Shown: positions 30,278-57,015 of the stretch, piece by piece
Layout: the number at the start of each line of letters is the position of its first letter
How positions within the stretch are numbered: the stretch's first letter is position 1
Assembly (NCBI GenBank): GCA_045863235.1
Contig: BTUM01000001.1
Coordinates: 1-64,000 of the forward strand
Length of the DNA: 64,000 nucleotides
Reading direction: 5' to 3'
Source: Candidatus Xenobia bacterium
Lineage (GTDB): Bacteria > Vulcanimicrobiota > Xenobia > Xenobiales > QWHO01
Position numbers and translations under genes: made by a program
The notes under the pieces: generated by a model
Told to the model about the DNA's origin: nothing
Databases searched by the model: none
What the model saw: only the letters and a program-made list of their open reading frames with translations

Positions 30278-31042
30278 TTCCTTCACGGTGATCTGGTTGC
30301 CGCGTCGTTCCAGCCATTGGACGCGCTCGCCAACCGCCGTTTCGATCATGGTGTGTTGCTCGGCCCATTCCAGCCGCTGGTAGCCGGTGCGGCCTTGCTG
30401 CCAGACGAAGCTCAGTCCCGTTCGTGTGGGGGACTCCACCCAGCCTTCCTCAACAGGCAGCGCTGGGACGGCACCGGCCAGTCGCGGGTCGCTTAGCCCG
30501 ATCAGCGGGGCGGTCAGGCCGAGCTCGCGCAAACCTTCGATCAACTCGGGTTTGACCCGGGCCTCGGCAGCCAGGATCTCCTGGGAGACTTGCTCGGCCT
30601 TGCGGTCAGAGCGCGACTTGTCCGGTTTGCCCAGTGAGGTGGCCTGCAGGCCTGCGGGTGTGCTCAACACCGATAGGCCGAGAATCGGCTGAGGGCCTCG
30701 CCATCCAGCGCCGGATTTTTCGGCTTCGTCCTTCTCCTTGTCCTTGATCTGGGATTGCACGTCGCGCTTCTCGGCTTCGGTGGTCTGGGCCAGTGAGGCC
30801 GCCAGGGCCTCGCTGGCGGTGCGTTCGAAGCTCTGGGCCTGCTCTTGCTCCAAGAGCTCATCGTAGCACTGCTCTTCGTCCTTATTCACCTGTTTGGCCA
30901 GCAGGTTGCGAAAGCCTTCGGGGTCGGTCTCACGAGAGGCCTTGCTGCCCGTTCGGCCGGCATCGCCGATGAACTGGGAACGGTCGACCAGAGCGCGCAG
31001 CTGGTGGGAAGGCGGCGGATTCCCGGCCTGCGGATCGTTCAT
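30239..31042 (-). CDS. Hypothetical protein
   Basis: 267-aa ORF, ATGA-coupled to the upstream permease gene. Confidence 0.65.
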   Translation of the reverse strand: MNDPQAGNPPPSHQLRALVDRSQFIGDAGRTGSKASRETDPEGFRNLLAKQVNKDEEQCYDELLEQEQAQSFERTASEALAASLAQTTEAEKRDVQSQIKDKEKDEAEKSGAGWRGPQPILGLSVLSTPAGLQATSLGKPDKSRSDRKAEQVSQEILAAEARVKPELIEGLRELGLTAPLIGLSDPRLAGAVPALPVEEGWVESPTRTGLSFVWQQGRTGYQRLEWAEQHTMIETAVGERVQWLERRGNQITVKESGRENPRRFPGT

Positions 31043-32064
31043 CCGTGGAGCTGGCGCAGTCTCCCCAGCGTCAGCCGGAACAAAAGAATGGCCAGGCCCA
31101 GGTAGACCAAACTGGCGGGCAGCAAGTGATGGCGCGCCCGTCGATGGGTTTCCTCGCCGTCGAAGTTGGCTTTGAGCTGTTGCAGGTTGGTGTCGAGACC
31201 ACCTTCCCGCACGCGCGCCTCGTCTACCAGATCGGGAACCAGATGGTTGGCGGGCACGTCAGCCCCCAGACTGTAGACGCAGCGCAGCGGGTTGAAAGCC
31301 CCCAACTCGAAGTTGTAGAGGGCGCCCTGAGAGAGGCTCAACAGCAGAGGGAGCGAGACCACGACCACCAGGGCGTAGATCAGCCCTCGATAGGACTGCT
31401 GGCCGGGACGCGAGGGAGACATCAGGAACATCCACACCACAGAGCCCACCAGTAGGAAGGGCCAGGTGAGCAAGCTTTCGAGCAAAAGCGTGCCCACCAA
31501 CAGCATCATGACGACGAGCTTGGCGTTATTGGCGGCTCGCTCGGGCTCGGGTAACTGGCTGCCCAACCACAGGCCGAGGCAACCGAAGAGGAGCGACACG
31601 GCCACCAGGAAGCCATCCACGGCCAGCACCGTCCAGAGCGAAATGCCTTCGGCCCAGACGTAGAATCCGAAGAAGAGAGGTTGAACCGCCAGAATTTCCA
31701 CCCAGAGGGGTAGCAAGCAGGCCACAAGCTTGGCGCTGAGAGCTCGGGTCAAGGACAAAGGGGTGGACAAAAGCACGGGAACCGTGCCCTCGCGCATCTC
31801 GCAGGCCATGGAAACGGCCGGGTAAAGCGAGGAGCGCAGAGCAACCAGCCAGGTCTGCAAGAGAACCGAGAAGGAAAAGAAGGCGCGAACGTCCAGCCCA
31901 CTTTCCTGGCCACCTGCCCGCCAAAAAATAATTGGCGGCAGGTGAGTGAAGAGGAAGAACCACATGAGTCCGGGATAGGTCAAACCCCGCTTGAGGCGAC
32001 GACGGGCCTGGGCGGCCATTTCTTTCAAAAACAGGGGGTCGGACCAGAGCGCCCGCGATTTCAC
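31039..32064 (-). CDS. ABC-2-type permease-like membrane protein
   Basis: About 6-7 TM helices, E.REGT..LLSTPLS..SAKL motif; probable GTG start at 32064 downstream of TATAAT (32095-32090). Confidence 0.75.
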   Translation of the reverse strand: MKSRALWSDPLFLKEMAAQARRRLKRGLTYPGLMWFFLFTHLPPIIFWRAGGQESGLDVRAFFSFSVLLQTWLVALRSSLYPAVSMACEMREGTVPVLLSTPLSLTRALSAKLVACLLPLWVEILAVQPLFFGFYVWAEGISLWTVLAVDGFLVAVSLLFGCLGLWLGSQLPEPERAANNAKLVVMMLLVGTLLLESLLTWPFLLVGSVVWMFLMSPSRPGQQSYRGLIYALVVVVSLPLLLSLSQGALYNFELGAFNPLRCVYSLGADVPANHLVPDLVDEARVREGGLDTNLQQLKANFDGEETHRRARHHLLPASLVYLGLAILLFRLTLGRLRQLHG

Positions 32065-32129
32065 CAGACTCGATTCACCTCCACGCTTCATTATACCTAC
32101 TCGGGGGCTGTTTGTAAGTAGTTGTGGTA

Positions 32130-33155
32130 TCAAGAATTCTTTTCGCCTGCGCTGGGAAGCTCCCCTGGAGGAAAATCTTCAATTCTGGGAATGTAGAGCT
32201 CGCGGGTGGGAGCAGCGCGGGGCAGGGGCTCGGCTGGCTCATCCTCGGGACGAGACTGCCCGTCCCGGCCCTGGAGCAGCCATTCCTTAAAGCTGTCCTC
32301 GGGAACGTCGAGCAGACCATGGAAGTCTGGAGCACCAGCTGGCCGGATGTTGCCTGCCTTGAGCATGCCCAGCATGTCGGCCGTGGCTGGAAACCAGCGC
32401 TGCTTTCCCAGCCAGACGGCGGGAAACCGGACCAGGGCGTACGGCAGCGGAAAGAGGATGGCCTTATGTCCTCCGAGATCGCGCACCAGGCGCAGCAGCT
32501 CTTTGTAGCTGTAGACTTCGGCTCCGCACAGGTGGAAGGTCTTTCCAGCCACATCGGGATGAACCAGGCAGGCTCCGATGGCCAGGGCCACCTCACGGGC
32601 TGAAACCGGAGCCAGCTCGAAACCCGGGCCGGAGAAGTAAGGCACGGCTGGAGCCCAGCGGAAGAGGTTCTCAAGCGTTCCCAGGAAGCTTGGACGGTCG
32701 CTGGGGCCGCCGTAGATGACCGAGGGCCTCAGGATCACCGTTTCAAGCTCGCTGGCCCGCACGGCCACCTCGGCCTTTGCTTTGGAGACGAAATAGGCAT
32801 AGGGCAGACCCCGCTCGGCTCCGTTTGCGCTCATCTGCACGAAGCGGCGTACTTCGGCTTGCTGGCACGCGGTCAGCAGGTTGCGGGTGGCCTGGTAGTG
32901 GAGCTTGTCGAAGGTGACGCCTCGTTCGGGGTCTTCCCGCAGGACGCCCACCAGGTTGACGCAGGCCTGACAACCCTGGCTGGCAGGAAGCAAGGTGGCC
33001 GGGTCGAGCGCGTCCCCCTGGAACGGCTCAACGCCGGCCACCCGCAGTCGGCTCGGGTCGCGCACCAGTGCGCGAACCTCATGGCCCTGCTCGAGCAGGG
33101 TCTTGAGAACCGGCTCACCGACATAACCGGTTCCCCCTGTTACGAGAACTCGCAC
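32130..33155 (-). CDS. NAD(P)-dependent epimerase/dehydratase (NDUFA9-like SDR)
   Basis: VLVTGGTGYVG, NLVG, RFVQMSA, YFVSK, ILRPSVIYG. Confidence 0.9.
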   Translation of the reverse strand: MRVLVTGGTGYVGEPVLKTLLEQGHEVRALVRDPSRLRVAGVEPFQGDALDPATLLPASQGCQACVNLVGVLREDPERGVTFDKLHYQATRNLLTACQQAEVRRFVQMSANGAERGLPYAYFVSKAKAEVAVRASELETVILRPSVIYGGPSDRPSFLGTLENLFRWAPAVPYFSGPGFELAPVSAREVALAIGACLVHPDVAGKTFHLCGAEVYSYKELLRLVRDLGGHKAILFPLPYALVRFPAVWLGKQRWFPATADMLGMLKAGNIRPAGAPDFHGLLDVPEDSFKEWLLQGRDGQSRPEDEPAEPLPRAAPTRELYIPRIEDFPPGELPSAGEKNS

Positions 33156-33482
33156 TTAGAGGATGCGAATTCCATCCGAGGGCAATTGGTCCTGACCCTG
33201 CCCCTCGGTTTTCTCGGTCGGTTTCATTCGATGGCCCAGTCGCTCGAGCCCGCCCCTGACCTCGTGAGCCAGGCCAGAGGCCCGGTCGTGGAGGCGGCGG
33301 GCCTGGTCGCCGAGCTGCTCGCGTGTTTCGCTGCCGGCCTGGGGGGTCAGCAGGATGGCGGTGGCGGCCCCGACCAGTGTTCCCACCAGAAGGCCAAAGG
33401 TAAAGGCGCCCAGGGCATGACCCTGCGGCTGCTCCTCGGTCTGAGGTTCGATTTCAACCTGGGTTTCGGGTGTCTCTTGCAC
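33156..33482 (-). CDS. YtxH domain-containing protein
   Basis: FTFGLLVGTLVGAATAILLTPQAGSETR; SD AAAGGAG. Confidence 0.85.
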   Translation of the reverse strand: MQETPETQVEIEPQTEEQPQGHALGAFTFGLLVGTLVGAATAILLTPQAGSETREQLGDQARRLHDRASGLAHEVRGGLERLGHRMKPTEKTEGQGQDQLPSDGIRIL

Positions 33483-33615
33483 AGGAAACACACTCCTTTG
33501 TTTGACGAATCGGTCCAGTTTCACTTTACCAGCGGTGGCCTCCCCCCTTCAAGGTCCTCCGGAGGGATCGTTGCGAATGGCGCGAACGCGGGCCAAAAAC
33601 GCGCTCGAGGTTCGC

Positions 33616-35433
33616 ATGAGAAAGTCTTACGCCGGAATGGATCTGTCCGACAAGGAGGCCGATCCGCTTTACAAGCGTCGCCATTCGCTGGCCCACGTGC
33701 TGGCTCAGGCCATTCAGAATCTGGTCGAGGGCACTCATCTTGGATTTGGTCCTCCCGTCGAGAATGGTTTCTACTATGACTTTCAGTTGCCCCGCCCGGT
33801 CACGGTCGAGGATCTTCCGGCCATCGAGAAGGAAATGCGTCGCATTCTGGCTCAGGACCAGAAGTTTGAGCTGTTGGAGAAGGATCTGGAGACCGCCCTG
33901 GCTGATTTCGAGAAGCAGGGCGAGCACCTCAAGGCTGAGTATGCCCGCGAGCTGGTCTCAGGGGGAGAAACGCTGACCTTCTATCGCAACGGCCCCTTCG
34001 AGGACATGTGTGCCGGCCCTCATGTCGATTCGACCCGGTTCATCCCCACTGACTGCTTCTGTTTGGACTCGGTGGCCGGGGCCTATTGGCGAGGAGACGA
34101 GAAGCGCGAGATGCTGACCCGCATCTACGGGCTGTGCTTCAATACCAAGAAGGATCTCGAAGAGTTCAAGCGAGAGCGCGAGGAAGCCAAGAAATTCGAT
34201 CACCGCAAGCTGGGCAAGGAGCTCGAGCTGTTCATGATCGCTGACGAAGTGGGCGCCGGTTTGCCTCTGTGGCTACCGAACGGCACGGTGCTGCGCGACG
34301 AGTTGGAGGCCCTGGCTCGCGAGAAGGAGCACGACGGGGGTTACGTTCGGGTAGCCACCCCTCACGTCACCGATGGCAAGTTGTTCGAGACCTCAGGTCA
34401 CCTCGAGCACTACAAGGAGGCCATGTTCCCGGCCATGCCGGTGGAGGAGCGTGACTTCTATCTCAAGCCCATGAACTGCCCATTCCATCATCTCATCTTC
34501 GGTGTGAGGCCGCGCTCGTACCGCGAGCTTCCTTTGCGATTGGCCGAATATGGCCAGGTCTATCGCTATGAGCCCTCGGGGGCGCTGGCTGGACTCTTGC
34601 GGGTGCGCGGCATGTGCATGAACGACGCCCACATCTACTGCACTCCCGAGCAGCTCGAAGACGAGTTCCGGGCCGTGCTCGAGCTGCATCGGGACTACTA
34701 CGAGATGTTCCGCATCACCAAGTACTGGATGCGCCTGTCGGTGCACGACCCGGCCAACACCGAGAAGTACGTTGACAATCCCGAAGCCTGGAAGAGCTCC
34801 GAGCAAATCATCCAGCGCATTCTGGACAACCTGGGCATCGAGTATCAGGTGGGCTTTGGGGAGGCTGCCTTCTACGGACCCAAGGTTGATTTTCAGATCC
34901 GCAACGTGGTCGGTCGCGAGGAGACCGCCTCAACCAATCAGCTCGATTTTGCCGTACCCGAGCGGTTCAAGTTGACTTACATCGGTCCCGATGGTGCTCA
35001 GCACACTCCCTACTGCATCCATCGTGCTCCGCTCGGCACTCACGAGCGCTTCCTGGCCTTCCTGATGGAGCATTTCAAGGGCGCCTTCCCCACCTGGATG
35101 GCTCCCCTGCAGGTACGCGTGATCCCGGTGCAGATGGAGAAATTCGGGGAGTACGGATCCCGGGTCGTGGCCGAATTGAAGAAACTGCGATTCCGGGTTG
35201 AGCTCGATGAGGGCTCAGACAGCTTCAACAAGAAGATCCGCACTGCCGCCACCGAGAAGATCCCCAACGTGCTGGTCGTTGGCGAGCGCGAGCAGGAGGC
35301 TACCGAAGTGACCTGGCGTCGCTACGCCGTCAAGGAGCAAAGAACCGTCCCGCTCAAAGAGTTCCTGGCCACCCTCGAGCGCATGCGCAGTCTGCGCCTG
35401 ATGGATAACTTTCCCGATGTCGAGTTGACGTGA
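33616..35433 (+). CDS. thrS: Threonine--tRNA ligase (short form lacking the TGS domain)
   Basis: RHSLAHVLAQA, GFYYDF, DMCAGPHV, GAYWRG, DHRKLG, LKPMNCPFH, GLLRVR, EAAFYGPK, IHRAPLGTHERF. Confidence 0.98.
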   Translation: MRKSYAGMDLSDKEADPLYKRRHSLAHVLAQAIQNLVEGTHLGFGPPVENGFYYDFQLPRPVTVEDLPAIEKEMRRILAQDQKFELLEKDLETALADFEKQGEHLKAEYARELVSGGETLTFYRNGPFEDMCAGPHVDSTRFIPTDCFCLDSVAGAYWRGDEKREMLTRIYGLCFNTKKDLEEFKREREEAKKFDHRKLGKELELFMIADEVGAGLPLWLPNGTVLRDELEALAREKEHDGGYVRVATPHVTDGKLFETSGHLEHYKEAMFPAMPVEERDFYLKPMNCPFHHLIFGVRPRSYRELPLRLAEYGQVYRYEPSGALAGLLRVRGMCMNDAHIYCTPEQLEDEFRAVLELHRDYYEMFRITKYWMRLSVHDPANTEKYVDNPEAWKSSEQIIQRILDNLGIEYQVGFGEAAFYGPKVDFQIRNVVGREETASTNQLDFAVPERFKLTYIGPDGAQHTPYCIHRAPLGTHERFLAFLMEHFKGAFPTWMAPLQVRVIPVQMEKFGEYGSRVVAELKKLRFRVELDEGSDSFNKKIRTAATEKIPNVLVVGEREQEATEVTWRRYAVKEQRTVPLKEFLATLERMRSLRLMDNFPDVELT

Positions 35434-38400
35434 CCGATTTTCTCGGGAGCCTGGTGCGCAAGCTGCGTGGCAAGAGCGCGCCCGAGACGCACGCCGAGCA
35501 ACCCGAGACGGTCTGGACCCGCGAATCGGTCTCCAAGGAGGCCCGCCTGCGGGTGGTCCCAGGCACGGAGCGAGTGGAGTTCTTCAGCCTGATCACGGGA
35601 GAGCGCCTGTTTGGCCTCCCAGCTCGCCTCACCGGGCCGCCGGTGAAGTCCACCGAGTCGGCCGACCGGGGCCAGAAACAAGTGGTCTTGAGTGTGCCCC
35701 TGCCCGGCAACCGGTCGGTTCGGGTCACCTTCCAGAGCCCCCCCGAGGTCGAGCCGGAGGAGGTGGAGACGGCTCGGGCCAGCCAGGCGCGCGTTCCGCC
35801 CGACTCGAGCATGGTGGAATTTCTGCTCACTCGCGAAGAGCACGAGTTCCGGTACGTGTTCGAGTTCCCCGACGGGCTGTCGGTGCAAGACTTCGAGCCG
35901 GTCCCCGACCGTCGACCGGTCTTCCGTACCGTGCCCCCCGTGGCTCAGATGGCTGCATTTCTGAGGGCCATGACCCAGCATCGTCGCAGTGCCCTGGCCT
36001 GTCTGGAGGACGTGGCCCGCACCTCGGGCTCTCCTCGGACCCGCGACCAGGTTGTCGTGCTGGCCGGACTCTATCCGCGCAGCCACGAGTTCAGCTGCGA
36101 GCGTCTCCGGGCTCTGGAGAAGCTGCTGCGCCGGAGCGGACGCATTGTTCATCCGGCCGTGCTGGCCGCCCTGGCTATCTTCGTCGAGCTCGAGCAAGAG
36201 CGCCTGAGCCCCGATAGCCTCGAGCCCGGAGGGCCGCTGGAGGTGTCGGCCCGATCCTGCTACCTGGTCGCTCGCCACTTCAACGTGGAGCCGAGCTCGA
36301 CGCTCTGGGAGGAGCTCTTCGGCGAGCCCCCCGAGGACGCGCCTGCTGAGGAGCTGCGCGAGGCGCTCAGAAAGAGCACCACCTCGCGCACTCATCTGGA
36401 CATCCTCAGCGACCTGGCCCGCGAGAGCAAGTCGCAGCGCGTGGCCGCCTTCGTCGACGCGGTGCGACGGCGCCTTCCCCTGGGCCAGTTTCAGGTCAAT
36501 GACGAGCAGGTGGCCCTGGGTGCCCTGCTGGCCTCCAGCGGCATTCCCGTGCACGGCAACACGCTGACGGCTCTCTGCTTGTTCGTGGACATCGAAGTGG
36601 GGGTACTGAGCCAGCTGGCTTTCGACCGACTGATCGAGAGCGGGGACCGGGTGGATACGTCGATGTACGCGATGGTGGCCGTGGCCGGCGCCTTTGATCT
36701 GGGCTTGCGGGGTTTCTCCCTCGAGCAGGCCACCGAGGACGGTCTCAAGAGTCTGTTGCAGCTGGCCGGAGGCCGATTGATGGCCCGCTTCGTGAAGGCC
36801 GGGCAGGAGGGATTCTGGTGGGAGTATCTCGGGTCGGCCGCAGAAGTGACCCGCCCGGCCCGCGAGGGTCTGACCTTTACCGGTCACGTGCTGGGGCGCT
36901 TTGCGGTCATCGATCAGCTCAACGAGCGCGATCTCGAGGTTTTTAACCGGGCCGGCCGTCCCATGATGGCCTGCTTCTCGGCGGACTATGATCGCACCAT
37001 CTTGTGGAAGAAGCTGGGGGACGAGGAGCCGTCCGAGCAGGGGAAGTTTACCTTCATCAAGGGCTTCACCGCCTTTAGCTTCAACCGAATGGTGATGGCC
37101 GGGCTGGAGAGCGGCCGCCCCCGCGGCCCGGTTGTGATCGGCGAGCTGGATGCCCGGGGAAACTACAGCTACCGGTTTCTCGAGGATCCAGCCGAGCTGC
37201 CCGAGGGCTGGAATGGGAAACTGGTCGCCTTTCCCGAGGTGGATCGACTGCCCGAGCTGATGTATGAGCTGGGTCAGGATCCATTGCTGGGCCGCAGCGA
37301 GGCTCTGCTCGAGGAGGCCCGTACGTTGGAGCAGGTCCACTCGTCCGTGGGCCGGATTCTGTCGGCGCGGCCAGCTTATCTTTCGCTCATCGAGCAGCCT
37401 GAGCTGCTGGCCAGTCTGCAGCAGCTGGCTCGTTCGCCGGCTCTGGCCAGCGCGACCTCGGTGGTGCTCGACGGACCCACCCGCGAGGGTCTGGTGGATC
37501 TTTTGAGCCGTCCTCAGGGACTCAAGCTGGAAGTCTATGAGCCGCTGGCGCGAGCGGTGGACACTCCCGAGGAGCTGGAGTTCCTGACGCTGCACGTTCT
37601 GTTTGCCCTGGCAGTCTCCGAGGAGGTGCAACTGGAGCGGCGCTTCAAGCAATATGATGAGGCGCGCTTTCGACAGCTCCTGCGCACCCGGCTGCACGGT
37701 CTACTGGATTCGCCCCAGTCCCACACCCGAGCGCTGGCGGTTCGCTTGATGGCGACCGCTGAGGAGATTCGCGACCGAAATGATCGGCTCATCGCGCAGT
37801 ACGAACTCAGTCGCGCTCGTCAGGACAGCGATCCCGAGGTCGTGCTGGGCGCCTCCGAGGCTCTGGGTCGGTTGGCCCTGGAGCAGGTCATGCCCCTGCC
37901 CGAGATCGCCAGCGTGTCTTTGAGCAAGGCGACGCCCGCAGAGCCTGTGGAGACCGTGGAGCCACCCTCCGACCAGGAATTGCACGAGATGAAGTCGGAA
38001 ATCCGGGCCTGGCTGGTGGAGCGCGCTGGCCTCTCCGAACAGGACAAACGCCGCTCCCAGCGCGAGCTGGCGCGCAAGTCCCTGGGCTCGGACGGGCAGC
38101 CGGAAGAGGAGGCGGTGGAGCGCCTGGCTGAGTTCCTGGTGGCCCTCAATCGGGCGGTGGGCACCGAGGGCCACTGCTATTTCTGCATGCTCAGGGCCAA
38201 CCGGGTGGGTCCCATTCGGGCCGCGGTCTTCGACAGCTGGCGGGTGTTCGCGCTCTCCAAAGGCTCTCGCCTCAGTGAACTGGTCTTCAGCACGCCAGCC
38301 CTGGAGCTGCGCATGGAGTATCAGGACTTCTTGGAGGTTCACGGGGCTGAGCTGTCCGAGAAGTTTGGCGGGGAAGCGCCCTTTCTGGGAGGGCCTGCAG

Positions 38401-54268: not shown

Positions 54269-54919
54269 TCAGTCGAAGTCGCTTTCGCCGGTCAGAAGAA
54301 TCTTGCCTGGCATCAGCTCCACCGGCTCTCCCTGGCTGCAACTGGGATCCTGGCAGGCTCTGGTCAGGTGCAGGACCAGTGCCTCGGGGTCAGTTGCGTC
54401 GGGGTGTTGACTCTGGACGCGGTCGGCGTAGACGTGTAGCCATTTCTGGATCGCCCGGCCGGGGCCGTCCTCGTTCCGCCCAACGACCTTGAGCCGGTCC
54501 ACTTCTCTTGGGCCCCACAGATCGACGAAGTTTTCCAGGGCACGCACGGCCCGAGCGCGATCAAGGCCCCGCAGATCGACCCCTGGAATGCCTGCCGGAG
54601 CTGGCAAACTCGGCGCCTTGTGACGGGCCAGGGGGGCGAAAGCCGTATCCTCGATGCGAGTTTTCTGGGCACGGACCTCGTCTGGCCCGGGGTCGTAGTC
54701 CACCAACCGTACGCCGGAGATCTCCGGATAGTAACGCCGGAACGTTCCTTCGATGGCCTTGAGCATGAAGGCGATGGGCGCTCCCGGACCGCTGCGACGA
54801 GCCTTCAGCTCGATCACGGCATCCTCGTCAACTCGGCTGAGCTGCAGAGTCAGCCCCTCGCGCTCGGCAGCAGGGCCAAGGCGGTCGAGAATCGACCCTA
54901 CTCGCTCCAAATCGATCAA
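54269..54919 (-). CDS. Hypothetical protein: NifU-C-like domain lacking CxxC plus Smr-like domain
   Basis: ERV..ILD.L.P..EG..LQL..VD / L.AIE..P.I..V pattern; VDLRGL..A..L..F..KVVG; TTGA-coupled to the upstream oxidoreductase. Confidence 0.6.
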   Translation of the reverse strand: MIDLERVGSILDRLGPAAEREGLTLQLSRVDEDAVIELKARRSGPGAPIAFMLKAIEGTFRRYYPEISGVRLVDYDPGPDEVRAQKTRIEDTAFAPLARHKAPSLPAPAGIPGVDLRGLDRARAVRALENFVDLWGPREVDRLKVVGRNEDGPGRAIQKWLHVYADRVQSQHPDATDPEALVLHLTRACQDPSCSQGEPVELMPGKILLTGESDFD

Positions 54920-57015
54920 GGGGCTACCTGAACTCCCGACTTACTCGCTCCCACTTCCGCCTTCTCCTTGTGCACCAGCCCGAGATTCATTCGGCCGTGG
55001 GTGAGGTAGGTCTCGTGCTTTTCTTGCACCGACATCTCGAAGTTGGAGGTGAAGGCCAGCGACTTGGTGGGACAGGCCTCGGTGCACAATCCGCAGTAGC
55101 AGCAGCGAGACAGGTCGATGGAGTAGATCTCGGGATACTCAAATCCTTCCTTGTTGACTGGAGACTCGAGATAGATACAGGCGTCCGGACATGCGTCCAC
55201 GCAGACTCCGCAACCCACGCACATCTCGGCCGCGCATCCGTAGCAGCGTTTTCCCTCGCGCTGAGCCATCTCCAGCGAAAAGCCGATCTCGACCTCGTCG
55301 AACGTCTTGATTCTTACCTCGCCCGGGATCTTGGGCTGAGGAACCTGATAGTTCATCGCCCGGAAAGGCTTCTCTTGAGGTTCCACATTCCACGGCTCGT
55401 GATGGTCGAAGTTGACAGCAGGAGGATCCTTGACCATCGACAGGCCGTGGAACTCGCGCTGTACGACCCCCGAGGACTCAGTCGGCATGGTGCCGTCCAC
55501 ATAGGGCGTCAATCCTACAACCGTGTCGTTCACCTTGTCCTTGAGCTGATAGGGGTAGAGGAACGGGAAGTTGCCCGGTTTCACCCCGTGCTTCTCGGCG
55601 ATGGCCAGGCAGCAGCGGTCGGACTGACCGATGGCATTGATGATGGTGGAGACGGTCACGATGTCCCCACAGGCCCACACCTTGCCGTTTGCGCGGGTTG
55701 TCTTGCCGCTTTTTTCGTCCACCACGATGGTTCCGTTGCGCCGGCGCTTGACATCGGAGGGAACCCAGGGCACGTCCACCTCGCGGCCCAGCGCGGTGAT
55801 GATCATGCCGCACTCCAGCACCTGCTCCGAGCCGGGGATCGGTACCGGTTTGCGTCGTCCCGAGCTGTCCTTGTCCCCGAGACGATTCAGGACCACCTTC
55901 ATACCCTTGAGCTGGCCATTCTCGATGACGATCTCATCGGGGGCGGTCAGCCACATGATGTGGACGCCCTCCTCCTCGCCGTCTTCAATCTCCTCTTCTT
56001 CGGAAGGCATCTCCTTGCGGGTGCGGCGGTAGATCATGGTGACTTCGGCCCCCATGCGTCGGCAGGTGCGGGCGCAGTCGAAGCCAGTGTTGCCTCCCCC
56101 AACCACCACCACCTTGTCGGGAACCTTGGTGAGCCGGCCCATCAGCTGCTCTTCAAGAAAGTCCTCGCCGTACCAGACCCAGGGCTTCTCCTCGTTGGGG
56201 AGTCCTAGATGGTAAGGTTTCCAGGCACCGGCCGCGATGATGACCTCGTCGTGGCGTTCTTCGAGCTCCTCAAACATCAGGTCCTGACCGATCTCGGTAT
56301 TGACCTGCAGGGTAATGCCGTCGAGGAAGTGGATGCGCTCCATCTCGCCATGGACCACGTGGCGGGGAAGCCGGTAAAGGGGGATACCCAGCGTCAGGAA
56401 GCCACCGGGCACGGATTTGGCCTCGTAGATGTGGCAGGCAAAACCCCACGAGCGGAGCAACATGGCGCACTGGTAGCCAGCCGGACCCCCGCCGATGATG
56501 CCCACCGACTTTCCATTGAGGGGGGCCCTGGTGCAATAATCCTCGTAACTGAAGCGCTCCTCGGGACTCAGGGTCATCTCCCAGTCTGAATAGACGCGCT
56601 TGAGCTTGCGGATGGCGATGGGCTGAGGCCCGGTGAAGCCGCGCGAGCAACGCTTCTCGCAGGGGGCGGGGCAGACTCGACCCAGCGTGGCCACGAACGG
56701 ATAGGTCTTGCGCAGCATCTCCAGGCCCTCACGCCAGCGGGCTTCGCCCGCCAGGGAGACATAACCGCGAGCGTCGGTATGGGCGGGACACCCTTCGGTG
56801 CAGGGCGCCCAACGGGTGCCGTGGTACCAGTCTGCTTTCTCGGAGATGGTTTGCTCGGTGTGAAAGTCGACCATGCGGAGCATACCACGTGAATTTGCGG
56901 GAATCTTGTCATGCTGCCAGGGGTACTGCACGGTTTCGGTGGGCCGGCGGAAGTTTCGCAGCGTGACCTTCATTCCCGTGAGGATGGCTTTCATGTTGTC
57001 GAGAAGGGTTGGCAT
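54916..57015 (-). CDS. FAD/NAD(P)H-dependent Fe-S oxidoreductase (GltD/DsrL-like) with NuoI-like N- and C-termini
   Basis: GMKVTL..TVQYP..RG; APC..CP, GRVCPAPCE..C, IIGGGPAG, GIP.YRLP, VVGGGNTGFDCAR, YRRT; CVGCGVCVDACP, IDLSRCCYCGLCTEACP. Confidence 0.88.
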   Translation of the reverse strand: MPTLLDNMKAILTGMKVTLRNFRRPTETVQYPWQHDKIPANSRGMLRMVDFHTEQTISEKADWYHGTRWAPCTEGCPAHTDARGYVSLAGEARWREGLEMLRKTYPFVATLGRVCPAPCEKRCSRGFTGPQPIAIRKLKRVYSDWEMTLSPEERFSYEDYCTRAPLNGKSVGIIGGGPAGYQCAMLLRSWGFACHIYEAKSVPGGFLTLGIPLYRLPRHVVHGEMERIHFLDGITLQVNTEIGQDLMFEELEERHDEVIIAAGAWKPYHLGLPNEEKPWVWYGEDFLEEQLMGRLTKVPDKVVVVGGGNTGFDCARTCRRMGAEVTMIYRRTRKEMPSEEEEIEDGEEEGVHIMWLTAPDEIVIENGQLKGMKVVLNRLGDKDSSGRRKPVPIPGSEQVLECGMIITALGREVDVPWVPSDVKRRRNGTIVVDEKSGKTTRANGKVWACGDIVTVSTIINAIGQSDRCCLAIAEKHGVKPGNFPFLYPYQLKDKVNDTVVGLTPYVDGTMPTESSGVVQREFHGLSMVKDPPAVNFDHHEPWNVEPQEKPFRAMNYQVPQPKIPGEVRIKTFDEVEIGFSLEMAQREGKRCYGCAAEMCVGCGVCVDACPDACIYLESPVNKEGFEYPEIYSIDLSRCCYCGLCTEACPTKSLAFTSNFEMSVQEKHETYLTHGRMNLGLVHKEKAEVGASKSGVQVAP

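Follow-up and report, generated by a model that had tools for sequence, protein, structure and literature searches.

A NuoI-like protein with an inserted FAD/NADP(H) module, a candidate electron input for a second complex I in a Candidatus Xenobia bacterium

How electrons enter complex I enzymes that lack NuoEFG is a long-standing question. Headless complex I types are served by docked inputs, such as ferredoxin, flavodoxin and FpoF. In Nuo-Bfu, a complex I core is combined with a BfuABC input module (PMC9304861). In mbx-like operons of Thermotoga and proteobacteria, a gltD-like protein is found at the NuoI slot (PMC4758237); judging from profile layout, this protein is probably NCBIfam PRK13984. 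The available part of PMC10482914 describes StnC as having a Lys ligand (K170) on the FAD-proximal [4Fe-4S] cluster and a non-bifurcating FAD, and places a glutamate ligand at the K170 position in bifurcating NfnB. In the available part of PMC7596348, YRR is given as a mark of NADP use in DsrL-2 and NfnB, and DsrL is characterized by its occurrence with dsrAB.

We analyzed a window of 64,000 nucleotides (the whole stretch of DNA under study) from a Candidatus Xenobia bacterium, whose genome suggests one concrete answer to this question: a NuoI that carries its own flavin module. No description of this inserted, quinone-type NuoI form was found in the literature searched (subscription journals and the nuo clusters in Fig. 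S2 of PMC4758237 lay outside its scope), and the parts of PMC4453560, PMC8165549, PMC6085437 and PMC11484240 that were available contained nothing on it.

Gene layout and identity of the two ends

Sequence comparisons confirmed that a 699-aa ORF of the window corresponds to a NuoI that is interrupted after residue ~48 by a GltD/StnC-type FAD/NADP(H) module (Table 1). The motifs quoted in the first-pass annotation were all located in the ORF: SRGMLRM (residues 42–48), GRVCPAPCE (112–120), GGGPAG (175–180), GGGNTG (306–311), YRRT, EGKRCYGC (587–594) and NFEMS (658–662); CVGCGVCVDACP and CCYCGLCTEACP occupy residues 599–610 and 638–649, respectively.

Table 1. Coordinates of the fused gene, its predicted parts and the downstream gene (window positions)
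Feature	Position	Strand	Protein residues	Remarks
Whole gene, NuoI(N)-GltD/StnC-type module-NuoI(C)	54916..57015	minus	699 aa	read from 57015 to 54916; start codon ATG
NuoI N-terminal half	56872..57015	minus	1–48	amphipathic helix, T-x-x-YP, RG strand
Inserted GltD/StnC-type core	55594..56814	minus	68–474	Pfam Fer4_20 + Pyr_redox_2
K139	56599..56601	minus	139	aligns with StnC K170 (alignment to 8oh5)
YRRT, NADP 2'-phosphate motif	56020..56031	minus	329–332	invariant in 28/28 close members
Displaced Fer4_20 start, RCxxC (C591, C594)	55231..55350	minus	~556–595	
NuoI C-terminal half	54976..55230	minus	596–680	both CxxCxxCxxxCP motifs + FE(M/L)S segment
Downstream gene, overlaps fused gene	54269..54919	minus	216 aa	possible accessory

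The earlier assignment of both termini to NuoI held. The first 62 aa matched NuoI models only (6/6 NCBIfam matches, weak, E 0.002–0.008) and the last 109 aa matched NuoI models best (E 9e-22, NCBIfam), so that the termini score as NuoI rather than as generic ferredoxin or DsrL. The NuoI-type N-terminal helix and YP...RG segment are present. When family profiles of the N-half and C-half were run against all 73,495 six-frame segments of the genome, the best non-self match of both was the ordinary NuoI of this organism, with E values of 4.6e-12 (next best, 0.12) and 3.3e-18 (next best, 4.4e-8), respectively. BLASTP against this ordinary NuoI aligned residues 1–44 with its residues 1–44 (36%) and residues 597–679 with 56–151 (39%). 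The N6a/N6b ligands (C599, C602, C605, C609, C638, C641, C644 and C648) were invariant in 28/28 sequences. The whole-protein score against TIGR01971 was 75.5 bits, under the cut-off of 113.05, because NuoI, ordinarily one contiguous chain of ~160 aa, is split by the ~550-aa insert.

The inserted module, described earlier as complete, contains both Rossmann motifs and ligands for two [4Fe-4S] clusters according to Pfam matches, alignment and fold. The predicted cluster ligands of the core (C72, C76, C115, C119, C123 and K139), its FAD site (GGGPAG) and its NAD(P) site (GGGNTG) were invariant in all 28 aligned members. EGKRCYGC had been viewed as displaced in the manner of DsrL. The displacement is real, as seen from the order of Fer4_20 matches (positions 16–110 match the N-terminal part of the protein and positions 1–41 match near the C-terminus, at 55195–55314), but StnC/NfnA is a better model than DsrL. 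The displaced RCxxC, also present in solved StnC/NfnA chains, is expected to supply the remaining ligands of the module's distal cluster. Dozens of full-length homologs from independent sources argue against an assembly artefact, and the module/NuoI junction was spanned by a contig of another run (X2 record 13, 54975–56019).

The gene downstream of the ORF may encode an accessory protein. It followed the homolog in six (L025, L028, L031, L032, L034 and L035) of 14 full-length loci (L025–L038). Its product had no Pfam or NCBIfam match and gave weak hints of a Cys-less NifU-like and an Smr-like fold (atlas TM 0.33–0.44, under the bar). A promoter scan at the fused gene returned 0 sigma-70-like sites; the stretch was present in RNA runs, as contigs only, with neighbours covered alike. 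Another Fer4_20 protein is encoded elsewhere in the genome (C106).

Two complex I sets and distribution of the fused gene

The genome has two membrane arms. Set A, composed of nuoA-H (C31) and nuoI-N (C71), encodes all 14 complex I subunits, including the only full-length NuoI in the genome; its NuoF, NuoG and NuoI exceed the TIGR cut-offs. Set B (nuoABCDH-JKLMN, C1:350615–361029) is an operon without both nuoI and nuoEFG, such as the first-pass annotation had proposed to look for, and its nuoH stop overlaps the nuoJ start. Set B genes are intact ORFs matching the expected Nuo models, with NuoL/M/N over TIGR cut-offs. Its NuoD keeps the His38/Tyr87 equivalents (H26 and Y75) and has no Ni-binding CxxC pairs, its NuoB has retained the tandem CC of cluster N2, and MqnA/MqnD family menaquinone genes are present in the genome. 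Since the nuoI slot of set B is empty and NADH-input genes are absent from it, the 699-aa protein likely completes this set. Its gene lies away from the nuo operons, as noted before, ~293 kb from set B and among unrelated neighbours.

Four deeper-branching relatives (G002, G005, G013 and G035) have a homolog exactly between nuoH and nuoJ, and in G004 it directly precedes nuoJ. The G002 homolog is one ORF, whereas the other in-slot relatives have two, NuoI(N)+module and RCxxC+NuoI(C); G008 and G015 have a scattered operon, with the two half-genes separated by another gene. No nuoE/F neighbour was found at any in-operon locus of the homolog, and no NuoF match at E<=1e-20 in G002, G004, G008 or G015 (96–98% complete). 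Among 30 set-B-type nuoH loci, nuoH abuts nuoJ in 27 (0–201 nt between matches) and is followed directly by the homolog in three.

Across 121 genomes of the phylum, whose kin are not independent, 37 had both the gene and set-B nuoH, 81 had neither and three were discordant: two with the gene only (62% and 65% complete) and one with a nuoH fragment only (78% complete). Both were absent from genus g2 (0/10). In eight genomes with one nuoH each (G030, G070, G076, G080, G084, G086, G098 and G040), the best NuoI-like match was this gene and no match exceeded the NuoI cut-off; G108 carried one further ordinary NuoI, encoded in a third cluster. The suggestion that the protein may swap with the regular NuoI received no support: its gene follows the distribution of the nuoI-less operon, and none was detected in the 45 genomes of family f15, whose nuoH is solely of the other type.

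Among distant members of this layout, CLE replaces YRR, suggesting that the family is not uniformly NADP-type. A metagenome scan for the context of such distant proteins found nuo genes in 0/80 loci and the NuoI N-half in none, and thus returned generic GltD relatives. In a quick tree (52 rows, SH-aLRT), the G002 fused copy fell outside the family clade and the protein studied here was on a branch separate from the Chlorobi loci.

A complex model of the protein with set B NuoB scored 0.61, compared to 0.00 for the best of three controls; the docking mark is one reached by 116 of 157 solved pairs and two of 215 mismatched pairs. Runs agreed 100% and partner pLDDT was at least 84. Only the two NuoI halves form the modelled interface, through residues 27–36 and 44 of the N-half and 610–613, 634–640 and 659–669 of the C-half, and these contact residues are conserved among aligned members. 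Because the NuoI-NuoB pair is a textbook one with a solved structure, passing the docking mark indicates likeness, not binding; in the single-chain model, residues 1–42 had low confidence (pLDDT 36–49). The in-slot homologs, co-occurrence and docking model together support the prediction that the fused protein is the NuoI of the set B complex.

Predicted electron path and rival explanations

We consider it likely (probability roughly 0.7) that the NuoI with the inserted FAD/[4Fe-4S] module completes set B to form a proton-pumping NADPH:menaquinone oxidoreductase. The two NuoI halves are predicted to refold into one NuoI docking on NuoB/C/D/H, with the module projecting at the place that NuoG would occupy. 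NADPH, whose use is suggested by the YRR motif, would donate a hydride to a non-bifurcating FAD, from which electrons may pass singly via the 3Cys+Lys cluster, then the 4Cys cluster that C591/C594 would complete, to N6a, N6b, N2 and finally menaquinone at NuoD/B/H, while NuoL/M/N/H would do the pumping. One 699-aa chain would thereby replace NuoE, F, G and I. The span from NADPH to menaquinone is ~296 mV (~57 kJ/mol per 2 electrons), versus 206 mV from NADH (potentials from PMC9304861 and the available part of PMC10482914). The NADPH span suffices for 4 H+ against up to ~150 mV, suggesting that the enzyme works near equilibrium and may be reversible.

The same assembly may also run in reverse, with pmf driving electrons from menaquinol to NADP+ to supply biosynthetic NADPH. 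We regard this direction as unlikely. It would fit the near-equilibrium energetics, the reversibility of this module type in DsrL and Stn (available parts of PMC7596348 and PMC10482914), the presence of canonical NADH complex set A, which already covers forward flow, and the proposal that NAD(P)+ is reduced at the gltD-like subunit of mbx-like operons (PMC4758237). However, a forward respiratory role agrees better with the several relatives in which set B is the sole complex I found, and PntB, by itself compatible with either electron direction, already offers this genome a cheaper route to NADPH. Still less probable is a set B NuoI that mainly accepts electrons from NADH, or from ferredoxin or another docking partner, such as a separately encoded NuoF homolog of the HydB/BfuB type in a confurcating head. 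The closest solved relatives, StnC/NfnA, do operate within three-subunit bifurcating complexes, NuoF-like genes scoring below the cut-off occur elsewhere in many carrier genomes, the Limnocylindria design includes NuoE/NuoF-like genes, and the CLE of distant members points in the same direction. Against such a donor stand the invariance of YRRT in close members, the absence from the protein of the [2Fe-2S]/NuoG-like domain through which StnC is joined to StnAB, and the lack of both nuoE/F at in-operon loci and a NuoF match in four near-complete carriers.

The least probable reading, which we consider very improbable, is that the relocated fused copy is a soluble NAD(P)H:ferredoxin-type oxidoreductase similar to DsrL/PRK12771, in which the NuoI-like ends survive as relics, and that set B is decaying or relies on the ordinary NuoI. 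The best whole-protein NCBIfam match is indeed PRK12771 (384 bits, under its cut-off of 516), the gene is distant from the set B operon and an ordinary NuoI is encoded in the genome. On the other hand, set B shows intact genes, relatives without another NuoI retain both the gene and set B, the two were lost jointly in genus g2, the NuoB contacts made in the docking model involve conserved residues, and this 97.6% complete genome has no dsrA match.

If the NADPH:menaquinone reading is correct, a respiratory proton pump is wired to the NADPH pool instead of the NADH pool, by a four-cluster, one-flavin input about one-third the size of NuoEFG plus NuoI. Annotations would also be corrected, as the gene's existing label is glutamate synthase beta subunit or formate dehydrogenase and the set B operon appears incomplete without it. 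A broader proposal, to which we give even odds, is that this 11-polypeptide, NADPH-driven, proton-pumping complex I, with one chain for NuoE/F/G/I, represents the ancestral complex I of Xenobia-like Vulcanimicrobiota and the sole one in several lineages, selected for the ability of NADPH, which NADH lacks, to drive four protons against menaquinone. NuoI would then be a reusable socket, entered at two different sites by GltD-type modules, NADP-type (YRR) and probably NAD-type (CLE), in more than one phylum.

Comparison with known systems

With NuoI/Nqo9/TYKY (NDUFS8) the fused protein shares the N-terminal helix, the YP/RG segment, two CxxCxxCxxxCP motifs, the FE(L/M)S segment, the nuoH-nuoJ gene position in relatives and the predicted NuoB interface. 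It differs in that ~550 residues replace NuoI residues ~45–55, providing its own predicted flavin and two extra clusters.

The best solved relatives by sequence and fold were 9bov_A, 9n5u_A and 8oh5_C, which are StnC/NfnA chains of the StnABC/NfnABC transhydrogenases. Common features include a permuted Fer4_20 with late RCxxC, the Lys ligand (K139 = K170), an Arg (R215 = R239) and YRR. In contrast, the fused protein lacks the N-terminal [2Fe-2S], the FdhF/NuoG-like domain and a StnAB partner, and its electron path would terminate at N6a/N6b of NuoI. Bifurcating NfnB/NfnL was rejected, as Lys139 replaces the Glu ligand and RCxxC is displaced instead of forming an unpermuted N-terminal CxxC; no nfnA-like neighbour was found among the flanking genes scanned in the window. 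DsrL-2/PRK12771-type flavoproteins have the same order of GltD core, linker and C-terminal 2x[4Fe-4S], as well as the YRR motif, but not the NuoI N-terminal half and NuoI-type C-terminal ferredoxin; identity as DsrL was rejected given the missing dsrA. GltD (TIGR01317/01318) was also rejected, with scores of 169 (cut-off 448) and 222 (cut-off 483).

Like the gltD-like protein of mbx-like operons, the fused protein combines a GltD-type NAD(P)H module with the NuoI position in an enzyme without NuoEFG. The PRK13984 profile is arranged end-to-end, with the NuoI ferredoxin (50–142) ahead of the GltD core (193–598), whereas here the module is inserted and permuted; membership in PRK13984 was rejected based on this reversed domain order and a score of 275 (cut-off 946). 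The host also differs, since set B, whose NuoD retains His/Tyr, belongs to the quinone-type NuoA-N arms and not to the Mrp-containing Mbx type. Finally, set B resembles 11-subunit headless complex I, Fpo, NDH-1 and Nuo-Bfu in its NuoABCDHIJKLMN core and non-NuoEFG input, but its predicted input is built into NuoI rather than docked.

Architecture of the NuoI protein with its inserted module

All motifs quoted in the first-pass annotation were found in the 699-aa ORF, and its reading of both termini as NuoI-like agrees with model searches and with genome-wide profiles of the two halves. The N-terminal 62 residues matched only NuoI models, and weakly (6/6 matches, E 0.002-0.008), and the top-scoring models for the C-terminal 109 residues were NuoI. 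In a stricter test, a profile for each NuoI half, derived from family alignments, was run against all 73,495 six-frame genome segments; ordinary NuoI was the top non-self match of both (E 4.6e-12 and 3.3e-18). Residues 1-44 aligned with residues 1-44 of the genome's ordinary NuoI and residues 597-679 with 56-151; thus, NuoI residues ~45-55 are replaced by about 550 residues. The permutation proposed earlier was also recovered, with Fer4_20 positions 1-41 aligning near the C-terminus. A single-chain model had pLDDT 81 and pTM 0.80; its N-terminus was poorly placed. We regard NuoI with an inserted module as real and well supported.

Coordinates of the features discussed
Feature	Location	Strand	Remark
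NuoI gene with inserted module	window 57015 to 54916	minus	699 aa
Fer4_20	60-148 of 699-aa protein		Pfam
Pyr_redox_2	170-464 of 699-aa protein		Pfam
Fer4_7	599-651 of 699-aa protein		Pfam
Overlapping downstream gene	window 54269-54919	minus	adjoins split nuoI in several relatives too
Set B operon	C1:350615-361029		window's own contig
hemL-like and polyprenyl synthetase genes	L019:5329-7615 (G000:C1 ~348328-350614)		directly before set B nuoA
YgjP/SprT-like metallopeptidase gene	L019:12212-12715	minus	between set B nuoK and nuoL
ORF between half-genes	L120:10296-10955		same place in L118 (G008, G015)
Hydrogenase-4/Ehr-like cluster	G000:C69 ~31000-37800		fused NuoI-like+NuoB-like gene
Chloroflexota nuo operon	L064:7539-12163		NuoI cut between its two cysteine motifs

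The best solved relatives of the module, by sequence and fold, were A/C subunits of NfnABC/StnABC (9bov_A, 9n5u_A and 8oh5_C), which also have the late RCxxC piece. K139 and R215 aligned with StnC K170 and R239, respectively. As described for StnC, K170 ligates the FAD-proximal cluster, the FAD is non-bifurcating, and NfnB has a glutamate at the K170 position (PMC10482914). YRRT was invariant in 28/28 aligned members, and YRR is described as a mark of NADP use in DsrL-2 and NfnB (PMC7596348). From its ligand set, the protein is predicted to carry one FAD and four [4Fe-4S] clusters. The downstream gene gave weak hints of a NifU-like fold lacking CxxC and of an Smr-like fold; its H172, H184 and C194 were invariant in 6/6 aligned sequences.

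A second complex I operon and its missing nuoI

The source genome (97.6% complete) contained two complex I-type nuoH and two nuoD genes, plus a hydrogenase-like cluster. Set A is canonical (nuoA-H on contig C31, nuoI-N on C71), and its NuoF, NuoG and NuoI all scored above TIGR cut-offs. The first-pass annotation had raised the possibility of a nuo cluster without nuoI or nuoEFG, and the set B operon is such a cluster, lacking both. It runs nuoA B C D H J K and, beyond a YgjP-like gene in reverse orientation, continues with L M N; the stop codon of nuoH overlaps the start codon of nuoJ. Set B NuoB retains the tandem cysteines; in NuoD, residues equivalent to Thermus His38 and Tyr87 are retained and Ni-binding CxxC pairs are absent. 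MqnA/MqnD-family genes and pntB were present in this genome, and dsrA had no match in it. The hemL-like/polyprenyl synthetase pair, which may serve quinone tail supply, also precedes nuoA at L116, L276, L278 and L279. The reverse gene at nuoK/nuoL recurs in the window's family and in some genomes of family f3.

Close homologs carried Vulcanimicrobiota/Xenobia source labels. Among 121 genomes of the phylum, 39 had a homolog (counted where the match began in the NuoI half or a contig end truncated it; twelve further genomes with a GltD-core-only match were left out) and 38 had set-B-type nuoH (E<=1.2e-94, clearly separated from the next value of 6e-81; one fragment of 65% identity is also counted). 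Both occurred in 37 genomes and neither in 81, kin among them not being independent; the 3 discordant genomes were 62, 65 and 78% complete. At 30 set-B nuoH loci, nuoH abuts nuoJ in 27 (source genome included) and is directly followed by the homolog in 3. In G002, G005, G013 (whose contig ends after nuoK) and G035, nuoH and nuoJ flank the homolog in a nuoABCDH-JKLMN operon that is otherwise complete; in G004 the homolog directly precedes nuoJ. The homolog is a single ORF in G002 and two ORFs, NuoI(N)+module and RCxxC+NuoI(C), in the other four. Two genomes, G008 and G015, have scattered nuo genes and another gene separating the half-genes; the ORF located there is highly acidic, then lysine-rich.

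In a quick module tree, the nine relocated fused rows grouped together (SH-aLRT 99) and were nested within the two-gene forms (96), with G002 placed elsewhere. This nesting suggests that two genes in the operon came first, followed by fusion and relocation. Among 28 chosen genomes, the homolog was the best NuoI-like match in eight single-nuoH genomes, and NuoF had no match in four near-complete carriers; G108 departs from this pattern in part: a third cluster there contains one more ordinary NuoI.

Proposed role and direction of electron flow

When the full-length protein was modelled together with set-B NuoB, the complex scored 0.61 versus 0.00 for the best control (the docking mark was reached by 116/157 solved and 2/215 mismatched pairs), with 100% agreement between runs and partner pLDDT of at least 84. 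The modelled interface comprised residues 27-36, 44 and 610-669; these belong to the two NuoI halves, and the insert contributes nothing. As modelled, the split halves are still NuoI-like and the insert is compatible with NuoB docking. Since NuoI-NuoB is a solved pair, this result speaks for NuoI likeness, not binding. Of the earlier docking proposal, the placement of both halves on NuoB held in the model, and binding itself is a prediction.

The analyses demonstrate the architecture, the empty nuoI slot, the ancestral position and the co-inheritance, and we assign a probability of about 0.93 to the protein being the NuoI of set B. In this role, NADPH would reduce the FAD, electrons would pass through the two module clusters to N6a, N6b, N2 and menaquinone, and the membrane arm would pump protons. 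With reported in vivo potentials of -370 mV for NADPH and -280 mV for NADH (PMC10482914) and -74 mV for menaquinone (PMC9304861), the computed span to menaquinone is 296 mV from NADPH versus 206 mV from NADH, making four protons affordable up to about 148 versus 103 mV. A menaquinone user would therefore gain from NADPH input. Because of the same energetics, electron flow through the set B complex in the reverse direction is a real rival.

Wider family and known systems

A search of 1.84 billion representatives with the NuoI(N)-module junction profile identified the same layout, at low identity, in clusters P0065, P0129, P0130, P0133, P0137 and P0138, and further in P0141, P0142, P0171, P0176 and P0185. 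One same-layout cluster was labelled Actinomycetota, and a two-gene type had a Planctomycetota label. Several distant clusters have CLE where the window's protein has YRR; P0130, P0137, P0141, P0142 and P0176, with CLE/MLE and often His for the Lys ligand, are possibly NAD-type versions. P0135 has the same layout with the NAD(P) domain mostly missing. P0143 (46 members), a single-chain NuoI with a GltD module between the two CxxCxxCxxxCP motifs and CLE for YRR, represents a second insertion site. In L064, NuoE-like, NuoF-like and [2Fe-2S]+GltD (StnC-like) genes lie between, and are fused to, the NuoI halves; similar loci are L066, L069, L071, L073, L075, L080, L082, L086, L090, L091, L093 and L095-L101.

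For Thermotoga and proteobacteria, mbx-like operons are described in which a gltD-related flavoprotein takes the place of NuoI (PMC4758237), and thus a GltD module at the NuoI position is already in print. Nuo-Bfu is another published alternative head (PMC9304861). We found no description in the open-access literature of a quinone-type complex whose NuoI contains an insertion. The PRK13984 profile represents an end-to-end fusion, whose order is reversed relative to the window's protein. Limnocylindria operons have their insertion between the two NuoI cysteine motifs, as in P0143, with NuoE-like, NuoF-like and StnC-like genes between the NuoI halves.
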